Numbered from the stretch's first letter, positions 4,755-46,797 are shown. The stretch: 46,797 bases of DNA from an uncultured bacterium (GCA_964577695.1 CAZOAL010000060.1:1-46797); one strand, 5' to 3'. Numbers and translations: made by a program. The notes: a model not told the origin generated them from the sequence alone.

Positions 4755-4774
4755 AGAGGGGTTAAACGTTCAAG

Positions 4775-4936
4775 TCACTGTTGAAAATTAGAAAGGAGTT
4801 TACCATGTTTCGGAAAAACCTGTTTCAAAATAGTCGTCATCGCCAGTCGTTCATTTCACTGTTGAAAATCAGAAAGGAGTTTACCATGTTTCGGAAAAAC
4901 CTGTTTCAAAACACCCGTCATCGCCCGTCGTTCATC
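4775..4936. repeat. 81-bp tandem duplication (2 copies) covering the RBS, start codon and first 19 codons of the downstream OmpA-family gene
   Basis: Copy 1 at 4775-4855 and copy 2 at 4856-4936 differ at only about 5 positions. Both carry GAAAGGAGTTTACCATG. Confidence 0.85.
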
Positions 4937-5590
4937 ATGGTCGGGATGCTTGTCGCGCTGATTTTCGCCAGCCATGGATGCTCGCATTTCAGTAACAAGC
5001 AGAAAGGGGGAGTAATCGGTGGGACTACTGGAGGCGTTGTTGGGGGGGTCATCGGTAAGAAGGCTGGTCACACCGCCGTGGGTGCGATTTTAGGCGCAGC
5101 CGTCGGTGGGGCATCAGGGGCTTACATTGGCCATAAGATGGATAAACAAGCCGACGAGATTGAAAAAGAGGTCCAAGGGGCCAAAGTCGAGCGAATCGGT
5201 GAGGGAATTCACGTCTCCTTCGACTCCAATCTCCTTTTTGCTGTAAACGAAGCCACGTTGACCCATCAAAGTCAAACGAATCTCCAAAAGTTTGCTGGCA
5301 TCCTACAGAAGTACGCAGATACGGACAGCTTGATCGAAGGGCATACCGACTCGACGGGGACTGAAGCATACAACCTGACACTCTCCCAACAACGCGCTCA
5401 GTCCGTCGCCAACTATCTCACGACCCTTGGGGTCAGTCCGACTCGATTGACCATCAGGGGGTATGGCGAATCTCAACCTATCACCTCCAACGACACCCCT
5501 GAAGATCGTCAAGCCAATCGTCGCGTGGAAATCGCGATTGTGGCGAATGAAAAGCTGAAAGCGGAAGCGCAGGCGAAAACAACAGAGTAG
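4805..5590 (+). CDS. OmpA-family protein (lipoprotein-like signal, Gly-zipper region, OmpA C-terminal peptidoglycan-binding domain)
   Basis: OmpA_C signature NEATL...LIEGHTDSTGTEAYNLTLSQQRAQSVANYL...RRVEIAI. Alternative start at the ATG at 4886 in the second repeat copy. Confidence 0.85.
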   Translation: MFRKNLFQNSRHRQSFISLLKIRKEFTMFRKNLFQNTRHRPSFIMVGMLVALIFASHGCSHFSNKQKGGVIGGTTGGVVGGVIGKKAGHTAVGAILGAAVGGASGAYIGHKMDKQADEIEKEVQGAKVERIGEGIHVSFDSNLLFAVNEATLTHQSQTNLQKFAGILQKYADTDSLIEGHTDSTGTEAYNLTLSQQRAQSVANYLTTLGVSPTRLTIRGYGESQPITSNDTPEDRQANRRVEIAIVANEKLKAEAQAKTTE

Positions 5591-5768
5591 TTCATTCAAC
5601 CTCACGAGGGGCGGGGGTACGTAAGCGAAAAACAGATCCGATTTTAAGTTCGCAAATGTGAGGCAGGAAAACGAGCAAATAAGCAATCAAGTCTCTATAT
5701 AGCTTTACGAAATCTCCGATTTGCTAGACATTCGGAGGCAATCAAGCAGACAAAGAGGAGGATAAATT

Positions 5769-5834
5769 ATGCTTAACTCAGAAATTCAAGAAGCACTAGG
5801 GCGTGTTGACGAACTCGGGCAAATGCGCTCGTAG
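5769..5834 (+). pseudogene. 21-codon orphan fragment (MLNSEIQEALGRVDELGQMRS*) identical to the C-terminal end of the DUF1016 ORF at 46052-46786; encoded inside the family-A repeat arm
   Basis: The nucleotide identity to 46749-46797 was read directly. Confidence 0.5.
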
Positions 5835-5924
5835 CCCAAGTTTCTAACTTGGCACCTCGTCCCCAACCAAGATAGAATCTTGGGCTACAGTTAGATTGCG
5901 AAACAGTTCGTCAACACGCCCTAG
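5796..5924. repeat. Palindromic MITE-like element, family A (outer arms CTAGGGCGTGTTGACGAAC, inner stem GTAGCCCAAG/CTTGGGCTAC, two small internal hairpins)
   Basis: Nested inverted repeats read directly. Copies or partial copies lie at 8932-9001 and 46749-46797. Confidence 0.75.
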
Positions 5925-5949
5925 TACCCTGTCAATCGTCATTTGATGG

Positions 5950-6000
5950 GTAGTGACGACTTCAGTCGTTCATCGAAAAAGCGACTGAAGTCGCCACTAC
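5950..6000. repeat. 19-bp inverted-repeat hairpin (GTAGTGACGACTTCAGTCG ... CGACTGAAGTCGCCACTAC)
   Basis: Read directly. It is adjacent to the family-A element. Confidence 0.5.
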
Positions 6001-6129
6001 GAACCCCTCAATTCAGCCTTGACAAGGCACTAGACGGTTGAGTGAACTCTTGTTAGCCACCGAAAGGGTCAGCCGCACTGGAAATGGTAAGTCGGAACAA
6101 AAAGCAGGCAGGATAGGGAGGAGTTACGC

Positions 6130-6369
6130 ATGACGGTTAAACAAAATCGAAGCAATCACCCCAATTTTTATGAGTTCGCTCTACTCTTTGCTGACGGGCA
6201 ATCCCGCCCAAAGGAGGAGCGGCGGGGTACTTTTATCGACAATCTGTCCCGGATTTGCGACGAATTTGCTTCTCATATTTCGCTGAAAGAGCGACATGAT
6301 TTGACTCATTGCAATCAAGTGATTGTAACGCCTGAGTTTGGCAGCTTTAGTGATACGAATCGGGTTTGA
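6130..6369 (+). CDS. Hypothetical small protein (79 aa)
   Basis: A strong RBS GGGAGGAG precedes the ATG. No recognisable domain. Confidence 0.3.
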   Translation: MTVKQNRSNHPNFYEFALLFADGQSRPKEERRGTFIDNLSRICDEFASHISLKERHDLTHCNQVIVTPEFGSFSDTNRV

Positions 6370-6928: not shown

Positions 6929-7363
6929 ATGAAAGACACACTTCAATACGACAAAGAGATTGCCGACTTCAAAGCGGCTATCGACATCGCCCCTGATAAT
7001 GCAGAAGCATATTACAATCTGGGGATTGTCTACGCCAAGCAAGGCAAGTCGGACTTAGCGGTTGAGTCATATCAGGCGGCCATCAACATCAACCCTGACT
7101 ATGCACAGACACATTACAATCTGGGAAATGCCTACGGTAGGCAAGACAAGTTGGACTTAGCCATGGCGTCATTCAAAAAGGCTCTCCGCATCAATCCCCG
7201 TTATGCAAAGGCACATCGCAATCTGGGGGTGACCTACGCTAAACAGGGCAAGTCAGACTTAGCCATTGAGTCATTCAAAAAGGCTCTCCGCATCAATCCG
7301 GACCTTGATAGCCCCGAATGGCGGCGGCGTATCAACTCACTACAGAACAAAGGAAGAATATAA
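6929..7363 (+). CDS. Tetratricopeptide (TPR) repeat protein
   Basis: Four 34-aa repeats of the form AEAYYNLGIVYAKQGKSDLAVESYQAAININP. Confidence 0.85.
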   Translation: MKDTLQYDKEIADFKAAIDIAPDNAEAYYNLGIVYAKQGKSDLAVESYQAAININPDYAQTHYNLGNAYGRQDKLDLAMASFKKALRINPRYAKAHRNLGVTYAKQGKSDLAIESFKKALRINPDLDSPEWRRRINSLQNKGRI

Positions 7364-7368
7364 CTCAA

Positions 7369-8682
7369 GTGTCTCTACCTGATATTTCACATCATGCGGA
7401 TTCCGCTGACATCGTTTATCCGTCAACATTGCCCTTCATCCTCGTTCATCTGGTCTGTTTTGCGGTCATCTGGACCGGTTTTCAGACCACAGACATTATA
7501 CTTTGTGGTGTCTTGTACGCCATTCGCATGCTTGGCATTACGGCCGGCTATCACCGCTATTTTTCACACCGTTCGTTCAAAACCAGCCGTGTGTTCCAAT
7601 TCTTGCTTGCGGTTGTTGGACAAGCTTCCGCGCAGCAAGATGCGCTCTGGTGGGCAGCCAAACATCGTGAACATCACAGATACTCAGACACCCCACAGGA
7701 CGTACACTCACCCCTTCAAAGTGGCTTCTGGTTTGCTCATGTCGGTTGGATCTTTTCGGCGACCAAGTGCCAAGCGGATTACCGCCTGATAAAGGATTTT
7801 ATGAAATATCCAGAGCTGGTTTGGCTCAACCGATACAAACACCTCCCCCCCGTCCTGTTGGGAGTCGTGGTGTGGTTAGTTGCTGGTTGGTCTGGGCTGG
7901 TGGTCGGTTTCTTCATGAGTACCGTACTCCTCTTTCACGGCACATTTGCGATTAACTCGCTGGCTCACCTCATCGGCAAACAATCTTACGTCACCGGGGA
8001 TGACTCGCGCAACAACTGGTTTCTGGCACTGATCACCTTTGGTGAAGGGTGGCACAACAACCATCACTACTTTCAAAGTTCAACCCGACAAGGCTTCCAT
8101 TGGTGGCAAATCGATTTCACATATTACGTTTTGAAGCTCATCTCGTTTTTGGGAATTGTTTGGGAGCTTCGCGCCCCACCTGAGGCTGTGGTTCAAGGGG
8201 TACGTCGTTTGCCGCAAAACGTCATCGAACGGGTCGCCCAACGGTTGGCGGCGAGTTTCGAGATTGAACCGATCAGTGAGCAAATTCGCCAAGCGTGGGC
8301 ACACACCCCGAGATTTGAGGACTTCGCCCAATTTATCCGCCAATCCCGGTCAGACACTTACGCGTTTCTCACCGATATTCATCTTCCTCAGTTGCCAACG
8401 ATCACTTCTCTGAAACATCAGGCGCAAGAGATGTTTGCCCAGACTCAACATTTGGATCTGATTGTTATTCGAGCCCATCAGATGATCGTTGAGGCTATTT
8501 TAAGGCATCTGTTCCATGATTCACACCCCCCTGGTAATGCGATTTATGTGTTGGGTAAGATGGGTGAATCAGCGGTGCCTGCATTAATCAATGCCTTAAA
8601 TTCGGAGCATGTCGAAGTTCGCAGGTATGCGGAAATAGCATGGATTTATGCGAACGCTCAGGTGAAAGGTGCCGAATTTTGA
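7369..8682 (+). CDS. Acyl-CoA (stearoyl-CoA-type) fatty-acid desaturase with a C-terminal HEAT/PBS-lyase-like repeat extension
   Basis: Three His boxes (HRYFSHRSF, HREHHRYSDT, HNNHHYF) plus transmembrane segments. C-terminus GKMGESAVPALINALNSEHVEVRRYAE. Start is uncertain: GTG at 7369, while the ORF track begins at 7318 overlapping the TPR gene. Confidence 0.8.
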   Translation: MSLPDISHHADSADIVYPSTLPFILVHLVCFAVIWTGFQTTDIILCGVLYAIRMLGITAGYHRYFSHRSFKTSRVFQFLLAVVGQASAQQDALWWAAKHREHHRYSDTPQDVHSPLQSGFWFAHVGWIFSATKCQADYRLIKDFMKYPELVWLNRYKHLPPVLLGVVVWLVAGWSGLVVGFFMSTVLLFHGTFAINSLAHLIGKQSYVTGDDSRNNWFLALITFGEGWHNNHHYFQSSTRQGFHWWQIDFTYYVLKLISFLGIVWELRAPPEAVVQGVRRLPQNVIERVAQRLAASFEIEPISEQIRQAWAHTPRFEDFAQFIRQSRSDTYAFLTDIHLPQLPTITSLKHQAQEMFAQTQHLDLIVIRAHQMIVEAILRHLFHDSHPPGNAIYVLGKMGESAVPALINALNSEHVEVRRYAEIAWIYANAQVKGAEF

Positions 8683-8723: not shown

Positions 8724-8915
8724 ATGAATAAATCCGATCGCTGGGAAAGTGTAATTCTGCTCATATCGGCTGTAATTCTCTTACCAATATGGTTGGCGCG
8801 AGACAAACAAATACCTATACCTGGGGGCATTTTAACTGTTTTGCAGGCACTCTTGTTGGTTGTGCTTGTCGTCATTTTGATTCGTCGCTTGCGCCGTGGG
8901 TGCAATGTCACATGA
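8724..8915 (+). CDS. Hypothetical small membrane protein
   Basis: Two hydrophobic helices (VILLISAVILLPIWL, LQALLLVVLVVILI). Weak start context. Confidence 0.3.
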   Translation: MNKSDRWESVILLISAVILLPIWLARDKQIPIPGGILTVLQALLLVVLVVILIRRLRRGCNVT

Positions 8916-8931
8916 GAAATGAGATCCAATC

Positions 8932-9001
8932 GTAGCCTAACTTTCTAAGTTGGCCAACCAAGGGCACCCTTCGCAGAAACCAAGATAGAATCTTGGGCTA
9001 C
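8932..9001. repeat. Short/degenerate copy of the family-A palindromic element (GTAGCCTAAC...CCAAGATAGAATCTTGGGCTAC)
   Basis: Shares the inner core with 5831-5888. Outer arms differ. Confidence 0.6.
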
Positions 9002-9078
9002 AATCGAGCGTGACATTGTAGTGCTAAAAGGCTTTTGGCAAATGATGAGGAGCGCAAATCACAATGGGAGGTGTCAAA

Positions 9079-11384: not shown

Positions 11385-11455
11385 ATTGAAGATTGTCGAT
11401 TGAAGATTGAAGATTTTCAGTCGTTTTCAATCTTCAATTTTCAATTCTCAATTCT
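11385..11455. repeat. Intergenic hairpin/tandem TTCAAT-GAAGATT repeats between the two floA paralogs
   Basis: attgaagattg ... caatcttcaat inverted repeat plus TTCAAT(T) x4, read directly. Confidence 0.45.
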
Positions 11456-14180: not shown

Positions 14181-16115
14181 ATGTACCACCCATTCTTTCA
14201 CCCATTGCTTCACCAGATTCTTTCGTTGCTCAAACGCAGGCGACTGCCCCTTGGGGGGCTGATGCGCCTTGCGGTCTGCTGTGTTATCCTGTGTGTGACC
14301 CAGGGGGTGGCCCACGCCCAGTTCACGCTCACGCAGACGTTCCTGAACCCGATGCCGGTAGTCAATGACTGGTTCGGCAACTCGGTCGCGGTCGATGGCA
14401 ACTGGATCCTCGTCGGGGCACCCTTAGACGGCACGACGGGGGCCGCCTACCTGTTTGACGCCACCACGGGGGCGCTGGTGCACACCTTCACCGATCCGAC
14501 ACCGGCCAGCAATGGCTACTTCGGCGGCTCGGTCGCGGTCGATGGCAACTGGGTCCTCGTCGGAGCAGAGCGCGACAACAGGAGGGTACCTGACGCGGGG
14601 GCCGCCTACCTGTTTGACGCCACCACGGGGGCGCTGTTGCACACCTTCACCAACCCGACACCAGCTCCGTATGACTCCTTCGGCTACTCGGTCTCGGTCG
14701 ATGGTGACCATGTCCTCGTCGGGGCAAACGGGGACAACACGGGGGCACCTGAGGCGGGGGCCGCTTACCTGTTTGACGCCACCACGGGGGCGCTGGTGCA
14801 CACCTTCACCAACCCAACACCGGCCGCTAGTGACAACTTCAGTATCTCGGTCTCGGTCGATGGTGATCATGTCCTCGTCGGGGCAGACCTCGACGACACG
14901 GGGGCACCTAACGCAGGGGCAGCGTACCTCTTCGACGCCACAACAGGGGTGCTGTTGCACACCTTCACCAACCCAACACCGGCCCAGGATGACGTATTCG
15001 GCTTCTCGGTCTCGGTCGATGGCGACCGTGTCCTCGTCGGGGCAGACCTCGACGACACGGGGGCACCTGACGCGGGGGTCGCCTACTTCTTTGACGCCAC
15101 CACGGGGGCGCTGGTGCACACCTTCACCAACCCGACATCGGCAGGCGGTGACCAGTTCGGCTACTCGGTCTCGGTCGATGGCGACCATGTCCTCGTCGGG
15201 GCAGACCTCGACGACACGGGGGCACCTGACGCGGGGGCAGTCTACCTCTTTGACGCCACCACGGGGGCGCTGGTGCACACCTTCATCAACCCGACACTGG
15301 CCGGCTTTGACGCCTTCGGCTACTCGGTCTCGGTCGATGGCGACCATGTCCTCGTCGGGGCACCCTTTGACGACACGGGAGCACCAGCCGCGGGGGCAGC
15401 CTACCTCTTTGGACCATCCCCCTTCACACTCGATTTGCGCTTGAACAAAGAACCGCCCGTTTATCAGAAAGGGGATCGCATGCTTGTGACGGCGCACCTC
15501 TTCAACCCCGGTCCGACGCAGACGGTACGGTATCTGCAGCAACTGTTCCTGCCAAATGGGAGCGAGTTTCTGCGTACCAGAATCGACCAAACGGTGTCCT
15601 TGACTTCGGGGGAGGATGTGGTAGACACGACCTTCAATCGGCACTTGCCCGCTATCCCCGCCGGGGACTACAGGTGGCGGGCGCGATTGCTGGACCCGGA
15701 GACTTCTCAGGTGTGGGTAGAAGACACCGCATCGTGGGAGTTTGTGGGGACAGGGGGCAGCCGGGCGAACCTGGCGCAACTGGTGGGCGGCTTAGACTTG
15801 TCCGCCTCCCCAGCGCGTCCGGTGGCAACGCAGTTACGCGCCCCTTATCCCAATCCCTTCAACCCGGAGACCTGGATACCGTATCACCTGGCGGAACGGG
15901 CGCACGTCCGAATCTTCATTTACGATCTGACCGGCAAGTTGGTCAGAACCCTTGAGCTCGGGGAAAGAGCGCCTGGGTCTTATCTTGACCCCAGCCGGGC
16001 GGCGCACTGGGACGGTCGTAATGACGCCGGCGAGCCAGTCGCCAGCGGGGTCTATTTCGTCCAGTTCCACGCCGGGGACTTCCGTGCCAGCCGCAAGATG
16101 ATACTGGAGAAGTAA
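14181..16115 (+). CDS. Secreted FG-GAP repeat (integrin-alpha-like beta-propeller, ~8 blades) protein with a C-terminal T9SS/FlgD-Ig-like sorting domain
   Basis: Eight ~54-aa repeats FGYSVSVDGDHVLVGADLDDTGAPDAGAAYLFDATTGALVHTFTNPTPA. Signal peptide MRLAVCCVILCVTQGVAHA. C-terminus PYPNPFNPETWIPYHL...IYDLTGKLVRTL...GVYFVQFHAGDFRASRKMILEK. Confidence 0.85.
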   Translation: MYHPFFHPLLHQILSLLKRRRLPLGGLMRLAVCCVILCVTQGVAHAQFTLTQTFLNPMPVVNDWFGNSVAVDGNWILVGAPLDGTTGAAYLFDATTGALVHTFTDPTPASNGYFGGSVAVDGNWVLVGAERDNRRVPDAGAAYLFDATTGALLHTFTNPTPAPYDSFGYSVSVDGDHVLVGANGDNTGAPEAGAAYLFDATTGALVHTFTNPTPAASDNFSISVSVDGDHVLVGADLDDTGAPNAGAAYLFDATTGVLLHTFTNPTPAQDDVFGFSVSVDGDRVLVGADLDDTGAPDAGVAYFFDATTGALVHTFTNPTSAGGDQFGYSVSVDGDHVLVGADLDDTGAPDAGAVYLFDATTGALVHTFINPTLAGFDAFGYSVSVDGDHVLVGAPFDDTGAPAAGAAYLFGPSPFTLDLRLNKEPPVYQKGDRMLVTAHLFNPGPTQTVRYLQQLFLPNGSEFLRTRIDQTVSLTSGEDVVDTTFNRHLPAIPAGDYRWRARLLDPETSQVWVEDTASWEFVGTGGSRANLAQLVGGLDLSASPARPVATQLRAPYPNPFNPETWIPYHLAERAHVRIFIYDLTGKLVRTLELGERAPGSYLDPSRAAHWDGRNDAGEPVASGVYFVQFHAGDFRASRKMILEK

Positions 16116-25394: not shown

Positions 25395-25507
25395 TTGTCA
25401 TCTTGAGCCCTTCGCTTCGCTCAAGAGCCTGCCCTGAGTGAAACGAAGGGGTAAACTCCGCGAAAGATCTCAGCCGATGAGATTCTTCGCTTCACTCAGA
25501 ATGACAA
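25395..25507. repeat. Cluster of family-B-related palindromic arms (TTGTCATCTTGAGC..., CCTGAGTGAAACGAAGG ... CTTCGCTTCACTCAGAATGACAA)
   Basis: gagattcttcgcttcactcagaatgacaa at 25479-25507 is the reverse complement of the arm at 317-344, with 2 mismatches. Confidence 0.6.
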
Positions 25508-31979: not shown

Positions 31980-32891
31980 ATGAACGTTATCGTCATTGTC
32001 ACAGACAGCTTGCGGGCTGACCATTGCAGTTGCTACCCAATGGCTGTGAGTTACAACGGCCAGAAAGTCGCTACCCCTCATCTGGATGGATTGGCGGCGG
32101 ATGGAACGATGTTCCTGCACGCCTACTCCGAGAGCTTGCCCACACTTCCGACGCGCACGACATGGTGGACCGGGCGCGTCGGGTTTCCCTTTCGCGGATG
32201 GCAAACCTTTGAACCCAACGACTACTTGCTGGCGGAAGTGCTATGGGATAAAGGCTTTACCTCTGCCCTCATCACTGATACTTACCATGCGCACAAGCCT
32301 GTTTACAACTGCGGATGTGGGTTTGACACTGTTATGTGGGTGCGCGGTCAGGAGTATGACCCCTGGATTGTCGACGCGCGTCCCGTTGACCTGAATCAAC
32401 TTCTAATTGAACCAGTGTGGAATTGAAACACGATTCTGGATGCGCTGGGCATCCCAACACCGTTGCCATTGATTTACCGTGCTCTAATTGAACCAGTGTG
32501 GAATTGAAACACGATTCTGGATGCGCTGGGCGTCCCAACGCCGTTGCCATTGATTTACCGTGCCCCCCAAACAACGGGCACCTTCCCGCAGGATATGTCA
32601 GTTTCTCAGAAGGGAATTGGGATGCACGGTCACAGCTTGCTGCCGCTGTTGCGCGGCGAGGTCGAGCGTGTGCGTGACTTCGCCTGCACAGGTCATTATC
32701 GCCAAACGTGGTCAATCCAAGACGCCGAGTGGCGATACCTGCTCTTCATTGATGGGAGCAAACCGTCAGAGCTCTACCATCGTCCTGATGACCCTTATGA
32801 CCAGCGCAATGTCATTGATGCGCACCGAGAAGTCGCTGACGCGCTGGAATTGGAATTGCGGCGCTGGGTCGCTAATCTAGCACATCTGTAG
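31980..32891 (+). pseudogene. Disrupted sulfatase-family (alkaline-phosphatase superfamily) gene: N-terminal 148 codons and C-terminal ~128 codons in the same frame, separated by two in-frame TGA codons; the central catalytic region is missing
   Basis: N-terminus VIVIVTDSLRADH...SESLPTLPTRTTWWTG. C-terminus NTILDALGVPTPLP...GHSLLPLLRGE...ELYHRPDDPYDQRNV. Stops at 32424-32426 and 32505-32507 are both in frame 0. Confidence 0.7.
32403..32564. repeat. 81-bp tandem duplication (2 copies) at the sulfatase deletion junction, each copy carrying an in-frame TGA
   Basis: Copies at 32403-32483 and 32484-32564 differ at 3 positions. Confidence 0.85.
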
Positions 32892-35043: not shown

Positions 35044-36003
35044 ATGATGTCGAGGTTTCAACGTATTCCCCTTTTTATTAGTCTAATTATTGTGAGTCTC
35101 ATTTTTATCACCTCAAGCTGGGGGGAGCCAGCCATCCAGATTCTTGAAAAAGAAAAAAAGATAGTCTTGACCGGGGAGATTTCCAAAGCGCTCGGCATGT
35201 ATGACGAGCATTTGCAAGGTGCGGTGGAGTATCTGGTTTGTGCGAAGGGTGGCAAGGAGTACGAGAGCATTCTCGTCGTCGATAGTACGGCAAAGGAGAT
35301 TTATGATGCCATGATTAAGCTCGGCGTCGAGAAAGGGACTGCCCCTTCTTACGACGCAACACAGGAAAAGATGATTCCCCCGAAAGGGACGGGCACCCTG
35401 CTGTTCGTTGAATGGACAGCCAACGGTGAAACGAAACGGGTTCGCGCCGAAGAGCTCCTTTACAACATGCGGACCCAAAAGCCGATGGAGCATGTCGCCT
35501 GGACCTTTTCCGGTTCTCAAATGGTATATGACCTTGAGAATGAGAAGGAGGATGTCATGATTCCCCAGGCGTTCATGAGCCACGATATCGTTGCCCTCAA
35601 CTATCTCGATGGCAGCGCCTTATTTCAAAACCCGCTCCCAGAAGCGGCAAAGGAAAATACCTATAAGAAGAACGAAAAGTTACTTCCGCCACTTGGGACC
35701 CGTGTGAAACTCACCATTGAGGTCAGCCAGAAGATGCAACTGTATATTCTCATCAGCGGCCGGGTGCAGGGTGTTGGATTTCGTGATTTTACACGACAAA
35801 ATGCGATGAACCTCGGCATTCGCGGTTACGCGAAGAACCTGCCCAACGGCAAAGTTGAGGTCGTCGCCGAAGGGGAGAAAGCCGCGCTTGATGCGTTCGT
35901 GGCAATCTTGCGTAAAGGTCCCCCCGCTGCCCAGGTCGATGATGTCAAAATTGAAGAACGTCCATTTAGTGGCACCTATAACACTTTTGAAATCAAGTAT
36001 TGA
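35044..36003 (+). CDS. Secreted/membrane-anchored protein with an unknown ~220-aa N-terminal domain fused to a C-terminal acylphosphatase domain
   Basis: N-terminal hydrophobic helix. C-terminus LYILISGRVQGVGFRDFTRQNAMNLGIRGYAKNLPNGKVEVVAEGEKAALDAFVAILRKGPPAAQVDDV is an acylphosphatase signature. Confidence 0.75.
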   Translation: MMSRFQRIPLFISLIIVSLIFITSSWGEPAIQILEKEKKIVLTGEISKALGMYDEHLQGAVEYLVCAKGGKEYESILVVDSTAKEIYDAMIKLGVEKGTAPSYDATQEKMIPPKGTGTLLFVEWTANGETKRVRAEELLYNMRTQKPMEHVAWTFSGSQMVYDLENEKEDVMIPQAFMSHDIVALNYLDGSALFQNPLPEAAKENTYKKNEKLLPPLGTRVKLTIEVSQKMQLYILISGRVQGVGFRDFTRQNAMNLGIRGYAKNLPNGKVEVVAEGEKAALDAFVAILRKGPPAAQVDDVKIEERPFSGTYNTFEIKY

Positions 36004-36008
36004 CGAGT

Positions 36009-36064
36009 GACAATCGACAATTGACAATCGACAATTGACAATTGACAATTGACAATTGACAATC
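36009..36064. repeat. Heptanucleotide tandem repeat (GACAAT[C/T]) x8, i.e. TTGACAA x8
   Basis: gacaatcgacaattgacaatcgacaattgacaattgacaattgacaattgacaatc, 22 nt upstream of the 36086 start codon. Confidence 0.9.
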
Positions 36065-36085
36065 GATTTAAGGAGTTGATGCCCC

Positions 36086-46051: not shown

Positions 46052-46786
46052 ATGTCAATGAAAAAGAGTCCGGTAGCAATAGAGTATCAGCAGACACTCG
46101 AAACGATTGCGGCGCGCATCGAACAAAGCCGTCGAGAGACACTGCGGACGGTCAACCGTGCGCTGGTAGAACTCTACTGGTTTATCGGGCAGGTCATCGC
46201 CGAACGACAGGAACGCGCCGGCTGGGGCGATGCCGTTGTTGAACAACTCTCCAGCGACCTGCGGATGCGTTTCCCGGATATGCAGGGATTGGAGGTGCGT
46301 AACTTATGGCGGATGCGGCAGTTTTACCTCGCCTACCGGGACGAACCAAATCTGTCACCACTGGTGACAGAAATCAGTTGGACGAACCACCTGCTCATTC
46401 TCGGGCACACTGAGTCAGCGACGGAACGGGAGTTCTACCTGCGCGTTTTAGAAAGGTTAGTTCAATCTATACGGCTTCTGGCTGCGGATTATGAAACACA
46501 GATTCGCTCATTTCCAGGCTTTGTTCATATCCCTGATGAGTTAGCCTTGACATACAACGATTGTTTCTTGCTCGTCGATCAGATGGCAAATGCTGGATTG
46601 CTTAATGAGCACCAGTTAGCCAGATTGAAAGAACTTGACGGGGCTTTAGAACGAATGAGTGAAAAAGAGAGTGAAGAAATGTGGACCTTAGACGCCTTAA
46701 AAAAGAATGCTGAATGGCAAGACATCCGGCTCATGGCAAGTGAATTATTAGGGCGTGTTGACGAACTCGGGCAAATGCGCTCGTAG
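46052..46786 (+). CDS. DUF1016 (YhcG-like, PDDEXK-nuclease family) N-terminal domain protein, apparently truncated and fused to a non-homologous tail ending inside a family-A repeat
   Basis: ELYWFIGQVIAERQERAGWGDAVVEQLSSDLRMRFPDMQGLEVRNLWRMRQFYLAY is the DUF1016 N-terminal block. The PDDEXK C-terminal half is absent. The last 12 codons are encoded by the repeat. Confidence 0.65.
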   Translation: MSMKKSPVAIEYQQTLETIAARIEQSRRETLRTVNRALVELYWFIGQVIAERQERAGWGDAVVEQLSSDLRMRFPDMQGLEVRNLWRMRQFYLAYRDEPNLSPLVTEISWTNHLLILGHTESATEREFYLRVLERLVQSIRLLAADYETQIRSFPGFVHIPDELALTYNDCFLLVDQMANAGLLNEHQLARLKELDGALERMSEKESEEMWTLDALKKNAEWQDIRLMASELLGRVDELGQMRS

Positions 46787-46797
46787 CCCAAGTTTCT
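46749..46797. repeat. Left arm of a family-A palindromic element (identical to 5797-5845), cut by the window end
   Basis: tagggcgtgttgacgaactcgggcaaatgcgctcgtagcccaagtttct is identical to the copy near 5.8 kb. Confidence 0.75.

Follow-up and report, generated by a model that had tools for sequence, protein, structure and literature searches.

The nested palindromic element described here, which we call MITE-A, is very probably an ordinary non-coding MITE of 123 bp that an IS5-family transposase would move into TA sites, and the ends that it gives to open reading frames are then accidental. Within the 46,797-nucleotide stretch of DNA that was analysed (the window), one complete copy (copy 1) occupies an intergenic site downstream of an OmpA-family gene, the left part of another (copy 3) is interrupted by the window end, and the interior of the element also occurs by itself as a core of two hairpins. 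The features to which we refer are these:

5769-5834, plus strand: 21-codon ORF, MLNSEIQEALGRVDELGQMRS*, running into copy 1, with AGGAGG 7 nt upstream as a good Shine-Dalgarno sequence
5797-5798 (left) and 5922-5923 (right): TA target-site duplication of copy 1, every TIR-bounded element having TA at both of its ends
5799-5921: MITE-A copy 1, the complete 123-bp element, GGGCGTGTTGACGAAC...GTTCGTCAACACGCCC, recognised by its perfect inverted arms and its fold
5799-5814, plus strand: left terminal inverted repeat (TIR), GGGCGTGTTGACGAAC; the same 19-21-nt end bounds IS5-family insertion sequences (ISs) of 866-1061 bp
5831-5852, plus strand: core half alpha, a GTAG tag (GTAGC) followed by a 7-bp stem (CCAAGTT/AACTTGG) closed by the 3-nt loop TCT
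5867-5888, minus strand: core half beta, GTAGCCCAAGATTCTATCTTGG (minus-strand reading), inverted with respect to alpha so that the GTAG tags face outward
5906-5921: right TIR, the reverse complement of GGGCGTGTTGACGAAC
5921-6033: family B nested palindromic element, with outer arms CTAGTACCCTGTCAA.../...TTGACAAGGCACTAG, abutting copy 1 at its CTAG
8932-9001: core-only copy (alpha, a 26-nt spacer and beta, without the IS5-type TIRs), intergenic between the desaturase and HEAT-repeat genes
46052-46786, plus strand: chimeric DUF1016_N ORF of 244 aa (Pfam), the 3' end of which is MITE sequence
46751-46797: MITE-A copy 3, left 47 nt, interrupted by the window end and preceded by TA at 46749-46750

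The outer arms of copy 1 (5795-5815 and 5905-5925) are 100% complementary over 21 nt, slightly longer than the 19 bp at which they were first described, and the TIRs within them are perfect over 16 nt, or over 21 nt when the TA and adjoining bases are included. Nested inside these are inner arms of 22 nt (5831-5852 and 5867-5888) that are 91% complementary, and each inner half is a self-hairpin too, which agrees with the inner stem (put at 10 bp) and two small internal hairpins noted in the initial annotation. When folded, a 141-nt stretch at copy 1 formed one long hairpin of -74.9 kcal/mol (z = -11.45 against 200 shuffles, none of which was as stable). The TIR 18-mer occurs 3 times in the window against an expectation of 0.01, and the half-core pattern 4 times against 0.03. 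At 123 bp the element falls well within the size of a MITE (about 50-500 bp), and it contains no transposase gene, its longest internal open frame being 25 codons. Copies on four further contigs (L043, L007, L037 and L001) are 99-100% identical to copy 1.

Copy 3 can be compared with an empty site. The initial annotation had reported an identical left arm at 46749-46797, and this segment matches copy 1 at 49 of 49 nt; the complete copy was found on a metagenome contig overlapping the window end (L001; JGI 3300010391), where it occupies 8827-8949, has one mismatch to copy 1 and is followed by guaA. A syntenic Poribacteria contig (L067; GCA_016178185.1) carries the genes in the order PQQ ... DUF5069 ... 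247-aa gene ... DUF1016 ... guaA and has an empty site, which reads GTGAATTCT-TA-GTCTTGCTTGGA with one TA (with a longer left flank, ...ATGGCAAGTGAATTCT-TA-GTCTTGCTTGGA...). The filled site in the source reads GTGAATTAT-TA-[123 bp]-TA-GTCTTGCTTGGA with two (with a longer left flank, ...ATGGCAAGTGAATTAT-TA-[GGGCG...123 bp...CGCCC]-TA-GTCTTGCTTGGA...). Taking the element and one TA out of the source yields the L067 arrangement, and it is this comparison, for copy 3 only, that shows the TA duplication directly. TA was also present at 68 of 68 distinct flanks of elements with the MITE-A TIR, at one end of each match partly by construction, since the pattern used for the metagenome scan itself contained TA; the duplication is independently backed because the unconstrained ends and the L067 empty site show it. 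At position -3 of the target, these 68 distinct flanks have C in 39 cases, T in 22, A in 6 and G in 1, and with a pyrimidine thus preceding the TA in 61 of 68 the target looks like Y-TA-R. We also considered a 4-bp CTAG duplication, as for IS5 proper, and rejected it: the inner G and C never change but the bases outside them do, and the empty site agrees with a duplication of 2 bp, TA.

A search for an empty site for copy 1 through homologs of the desaturase gene gave none, two of the contigs being non-syntenic (L069 and L070) and a third ending before the site (L071), while another contig with a desaturase homolog (L072) begins exactly where the repeat nest ends. The OmpA-family neighbour offered no close ortholog for the same search, the next best being 64% identical. 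As a separate observation on target sites, the flanks of two elements, at L017 1616-2639 and L061 7687-7809, are mutually complementary (for example AGGGATTGGC-TA...TA-GAGCCAATCCCT), and it may be that the transposase favours insertion at the centre of palindromes already present.

The same 19-21-nt TIR that ends MITE-A also bounds ISs on nine contigs (L003, L013, L017, L024, L026, L039, L044, L046 and L052). These partner ISs measure 866-881 bp, with two of 1024 and 1061 bp, and contain two overlapping ORFs: orfA, which matches PF13340 (DUF4096, 'putative transposase of IS4/5 family'), and orfB, which matches PF01609 (DDE_Tnp_1) and lies one base behind orfA. A run of eight A residues (A8) is found at the overlap in nearly all IS copies and is absent there in the 1024-bp copy on L017; in L052 and L013, longer A runs bring both frames into one fused ORF (280 or 292 aa). 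When orfA and orfB were joined by a conceptual frameshift, the NCBIfam model NF033580, 'IS5 family transposase', matched the product along the whole length (276.8 bits; cut-off 110 bits), and the fused transposase was 44-46% identical to annotated IS5-family transposases, which match in two pieces too. The IS copies are only 64-72% identical to one another and have nevertheless kept the TIR, which marks it as the conserved recognition site of a diverged IS clade. With MITE-A they have only about 22 nt in common at each end.

TA flanks every partner IS copy. In the IS427-like group the duplication is typically short, 2-4 bp, at a TA-containing target. Members of this group are about 800-1000 bp long and have two overlapping ORFs joined by frameshifting, and the partner ISs, with their size and their two-ORF layout, fit published IS427-group members. 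Two examples are 860 and 899 bp long; a +1 frameshift joins the two ORFs in one of them, and in the other the transposase gene is interrupted (PMC3196728, PMC2516522). On L052 (1-966), the IS with the fused 280-aa ORF directly follows a MITE-A copy, with a single TA common to both (CGCCC-TA-GGGCG). As the two abut on this one metagenome contig, MITE and IS co-reside in at least one genome; no IS with MITE-A TIRs was found in the window or in L001.

We then considered the interior of the element. Across the collected cores, the alpha half has the consensus GTAGCCCAA[G/C/A]TTTCTAA[C/G/T]TTGG and is followed by a spacer and an inverted beta half, GTAGCCCAAGATTCTATCTTGG. The two are always paired and inverted, with their tags outward and 4-46 nt between them, and GTAG is kept in most halves, the variants being GTGG, GCAG, GTAT and TTAG. 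The stem positions covary, pair 10-18 being GC in 7 sequences, CG in 4 and AU in 2, and pair 11-17 UA in 8 and AU in 5, in a set that is small, hand-collected and biased, the beta half having served as the search key and owing its constancy to this. In the same set, stem cells were paired in 93.9% of cases, as compared with 81.2% in shuffles. The differences between alpha and beta preserve each self-hairpin and weaken the pairing between the halves.

The copy at 8932-9001 had been described as a shortened core of the element. The inner double hairpin is indeed present there (z = -3.7), but the copy has 9-bp outer arms of its own (8903-8911 and 9010-9018) and is not a shortened MITE-A; similar outer arms (ACAATGTYA...) surround the cores in L063 and L064. 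In L072 the orthologous site contains a divergent remnant of 46 nt and no clean gap, which suggests that the core insertion at 8932-9001 is old and decaying. The desaturase gene on one side of it has a longest ORF of 454 aa (7318-8682), of which homologs of about 396 aa cover only 82-86%, so that the true start is probably downstream of 7318. Core-only copies had unrelated flanks, were intergenic in all ten cases examined (nine distinct loci and that of the window) and occurred in either orientation with respect to the adjoining genes. At L063, for example, the core is flanked by obg and by an amino-acid kinase/PUA gene that is probably proB, and a Pfam search of ten genes beside cores returned housekeeping genes only.

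Just as the core exists independently of the TIRs, the TIRs exist with other interiors. In sister MITEs on L008 and L048, a different interior palindrome is enclosed by the TIR, linker and GTAG...GGCTAC boundaries of MITE-A, and MITEs of 115 nt and 398 nt (L011, L027 and L034) have the same TIR without a GTAG core. The TIR frame and the core are therefore separable modules. REPIN-type GTAG doublets are normally acted on by a single-strand HUH transposase (RAYT). It is conceivable, if on present evidence rather doubtful, that MITE-A is a chimera of two layers, in which a REPIN-like GTAG doublet sits in the TIR frame of an IS5-family MITE, so that two unrelated transposition systems spread it, or it switches between them, and GTAG...CTAC marks the junctions at which cores are exchanged. 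Such exchange is suggested by L008 and L048, where another GTAG...CTAC core is found between the same TIRs and linkers. If this REP-in-MITE architecture and core swapping held true genome-wide, it would be a modest but real addition to what is known of the relationship between REPs and MITEs, the boundary between REP-type and MITE-type elements being blurry in the literature.

A further alternative treats the whole element as a REPIN, a REP doublet mobilised via single-stranded DNA by a RAYT (an HUH tyrosine transposase), with the outer arms as a mere extension of the hairpin. The interior would suit it well, being a pair of inverted, GTAG-tagged hairpins (stem 7 bp, loop 3 nt) whose outward tags and variable spacer match published head-to-head heterodimers of GTAG REPs (PMC3733652); the covariation of the stem and the intergenic position of core-only copies in either orientation point the same way. 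However, young copies are identical across the full 123 bp, outer arms included, TA always flanks them and is duplicated, as judged from the empty site, and the outer arms have the very sequence of the TIRs that bound IS5-family DDE elements. Two weak tests, moreover, gave no RAYT, either among the genes neighbouring ten sampled cores or in about 340 kb of fetched DNA (phmmer, all ORFs, with an E. coli RayT probe). For the full MITE this reading is already disfavoured, and we regard it as improbable.

The initial annotation had singled out as unusual that the element provides a C-terminal peptide and a stop to genes it lands in. The translations quoted for the ORF at 5769-5834 and for the ORF end at 46786 (...ASELLGRVDELGQMRS*) are both correct, and copy 3 does end the DUF1016 ORF at 46786, supplying its last 11 codons, GRVDELGQMRS, and the stop. 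What the frames entering the element show is simpler. Stops lie at element positions -2, +8 and +33, one per frame: the first frame into the TIR meets an immediate TAG, formed by the TA duplication and the element's first G, the second reaches the TGA in GTTGAC after 3 codons, and the third is open for 11 codons (GRVDELGQMRS) before the TAG within the GTAG tag closes it. The flank could be read at about 14 copies, and only at the DUF1016 copy does a long ORF (233 aa) enter in the third frame; the remaining surveyed copies are intergenic or are entered by ORFs of 56-82 codons in other frames. With one copy in about 14 so placed, and every frame closing within 0-11 codons, the supply of a gene end by the element is incidental, neither unusual nor selected, and fusions between MITEs and ORFs have indeed been called 'not unusual' (review, PMC10969869).

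The ORF in which copy 3 lies was already a degenerate chimera, an N-terminal domain joined in frame to an unrelated C-terminal fragment. Pfam identified only DUF1016_N in its 244 aa (aa 19-149). The first 130 aa or so are 97% identical to a full-length homolog of 342 aa with both a DUF1016_N and a YhcG_C nuclease domain (P0003); beyond about aa 130 the sequence is unrelated to this protein, and the YhcG_C nuclease domain is missing. The ortholog on L067 (4392-5078) has another breakpoint, is joined to the same downstream fragment (...WTLDALKKN.EWQDIR.MASE.L...) and has lost YhcG_C too. If the MITE were absent from the source, the ORF there would continue for another 26 codons; in L067 it continues for 11.

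The 21-codon ORF that runs into copy 1 is most likely fortuitous, its Shine-Dalgarno sequence notwithstanding. No counterpart was found at the other MITE-A copies surveyed, and with both nested elements conceptually removed it comes to 12 codons. A conserved small ORF upstream of the MITE was also considered and rejected: the left flank in L025 matches that in the window at 13 of 21 bases but has no start codon, and this flank is found at no other copy.

These observations bear on a different possibility, namely that selection favours the element, either as a portable gene-end module or as a structured RNA (a terminator, an mRNA stabiliser or a small RNA). Its hairpin is very stable, the two ORFs of the window that end inside it do so in the same frame, and for other bacteria a role at the RNA level has been proposed for REP-type hairpins that follow genes (PMC3733652). 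Set against this, a long ORF is ended in that frame by only one of the roughly 14 copies, core-only copies have no consistent orientation relative to neighbouring genes, and a promoter and terminator scan of 5500-6200 revealed no U-tract terminator or promoter signal, nor anything else, above shuffled expectation. Rfam likewise yielded no credible family, either for the whole window at gathering thresholds or for 5700-6100 at E <= 1. We therefore give very little credence to selection for a role as a gene end or an RNA.

As to how widely MITE-A is dispersed, the TIR 19-mer TAGGGCGTGTTGACGAACT is found in 52 metagenome stretches, about 20 of which hold copies 96-100% identical to the whole element, many of them at contig ends, where repeats are expected. 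Where identity to the 123-bp element is 96% or more, the copies have 11 different flanking sequences on the alpha side and 12 on the beta side, which together indicate 13-17 independent insertion sites, and homology between copies stops exactly at the TA on both sides. The initial annotation's proposal of a dispersed, MITE/REP-like element is thus well supported, by the 13-17 unrelated contexts, the empty orthologous site and the autonomous ISs with the same TIRs, and the situation that it had named as fatal to the idea, a few copies confined to a single duplicated region, is not what these contexts and the empty site reveal. Although the window holds only two full copies and one core, a simple segmental duplication inside one region, involving no mobile element, has next to no chance of being correct, given the unrelated flanks across contigs, the precise end of homology at the TA on either side and the existence of an orthologous empty site in L067.

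Older, diverged copies were seen in other Poribacteria MAGs (L061, L065 and L055), and in a genome scan the core 20-mer occurred at no fewer than 13 loci in at least 4 MAGs of Candidatus Poribacteria. The nearest homolog of the DUF1016 ORF, on L067, carries the annotation Candidatus Poribacteria, and the host genome is itself a member of Candidatus Poribacteria. Searches of viral contigs and plasmids found no copy of the TIR or of the element. The copies in L036 and L043 have one MITE-A flank in common and the other different, a pattern produced either by recombination between copies or by an assembly chimera. Other MITE families with the same IS5-type TIR are found at L008 234-358 and L048 18-142 (a 125-nt family) and at L011 933-1047, L027 1264-1378 and L034 4583-4980.

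MITE-A is not the only repeat in the window. In the family B element that abuts copy 1, the outer arms are 31 nt long and 74% complementary, and the core (5950-6000) is an inverted pair of GTAGTG[A/G]CGACTTCAGTCG, each with a GTAG tag, a 5-bp stem and a TC loop. L008 and L048 have relatives of family B beside a MITE that shares the IS5-type TIRs, whereas L066 has one that stands alone. At 4767-4928, the OmpA-family gene has its ribosome-binding site, ATG and first codons twice over, in an 81-bp tandem duplication (91% identical), and two tandem 81-bp units that are 98% identical lie at 32402-32563. Six to seven 159-bp tandem repeats (14326-15377; 68-84% identical) lie inside a 644-aa ORF (14181-16115) and presumably encode a repeated 53-residue protein domain. 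Another dispersed palindromic family is represented at 317-378 by a 28-nt perfect-type palindrome (TGTCATTCTGAGCGTAGCGAAGAATCTC / GAGATCCTTCGCTACGCTCAGGATGACA), a related arm of which lies 25 kb off at 25475-25506. Finally, runs of the heptamer CAATTGA/CAATCGA at one site recur as the reverse complement 24.5 kb away (35990-36070 and 11385-11452).

For MITE and IS pairs with matching TIRs, mobilisation in trans is the standard inference. Under the reading that we favour, that of a MITE moved by an IS5-family transposase, MITE-A has no coding capacity of its own, and its 16-21-bp TIRs are the predicted binding and cleavage sites of a DDE transposase. This would be supplied from elsewhere, by IS427-like IS5-family ISs of about 870 bp with orfA (DUF4096), orfB (DDE_Tnp_1) and an A8 slippery run, and would insert MITE-A at Y-TA-R and duplicate the TA. 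One copy entered an intergenic region (5799-5921); the other (46751 on) came to lie 11-26 codons ahead of the end of an already degenerate DUF1016-type ORF, where GRVDELGQMRS and the stop are the TIR read in the sole frame not closed at once. The interior is not derived from the IS; it is a REP-like head-to-head heterodimer of GTAG-tagged hairpins, apparently captured by the MITE frame.

If correct, this reading accounts for a class of nested palindromes in Poribacteria MAGs, and the presence of the repeats at contig ends shows why Poribacteria assemblies break there. It also carries a warning for annotation, as C-terminal extensions such as GRVDELGQMRS and tiny ORFs beside repeats would be transposon-derived artefacts. 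For closely related Poribacteria populations, filled and empty sites offer a marker of recent activity.

Among known systems, Rickettsia palindromic elements (RPEs; PMC10969869) are similar to MITE-A in being palindromic repeats that add residues to a host ORF. However, RPEs stay open and the host ORF continues beyond them, whereas MITE-A closes an ORF within 0-11 codons in every frame, as seen in the DUF1016 ORF, which ends inside the element, and has no excess of intragenic copies. When judged by length without a transposase gene, TIRs, target-site duplication, dispersal and TIRs held in common with an autonomous IS, the element passes the sequence-level tests for a bacterial MITE of the kind predicted to be mobilised by an IS5-family element. 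Like the MITEs that derive from IS5-family elements or are mobilised by them, for example MITEAba12 of Acinetobacter (PMC6382973), and like bacterial MITEs in general (review, PMC10969869), MITE-A is small, non-coding and palindromic, has TIRs identical to those of an autonomous IS and a short target-site duplication, and exists as many near-identical dispersed copies that are mostly intergenic, with an occasional ORF fusion. It differs from known IS5-type MITEs in its presumed parent, an IS427-like two-ORF IS of about 870 bp, in a duplication of only TA at Y-TA-R, in an interior that is a separate hairpin-pair module and no deletion derivative of an IS, and in its host, Candidatus Poribacteria; a literature search found no paper joining Poribacteria with MITEs.

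The core, in turn, resembles a GTAG REP dimer or REPIN, a likeness drawn from sequence features, whereas for REPINs it is the association with a RAYT that defines the mechanism. GTAG-tagged REPs have a terminal GTAG beside a stem of 6-13 bp with a short loop, and REP dimers nested in longer palindromes occur in Anabaena variabilis and Halothiobacillus neapolitanus (PMC3733652). With GTAG REP dimers and REPINs (Di Nocera et al. 2013, PMC3733652; Bertels and Rainey 2011, PMC3116915) the core of MITE-A has in common the terminal GTAG, a stem and a loop whose lengths (7 bp and 3 nt) are among those published, and complementary substitutions in the stem, together with the arrangement as an inverted pair with outward tags, a variable spacer and unlike halves (a heterodimer), which in the core-only copies examined is intergenic. 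Unlike in the nested REP dimers, the longer palindrome around the core of MITE-A consists of IS5-family TIRs with a TA duplication.
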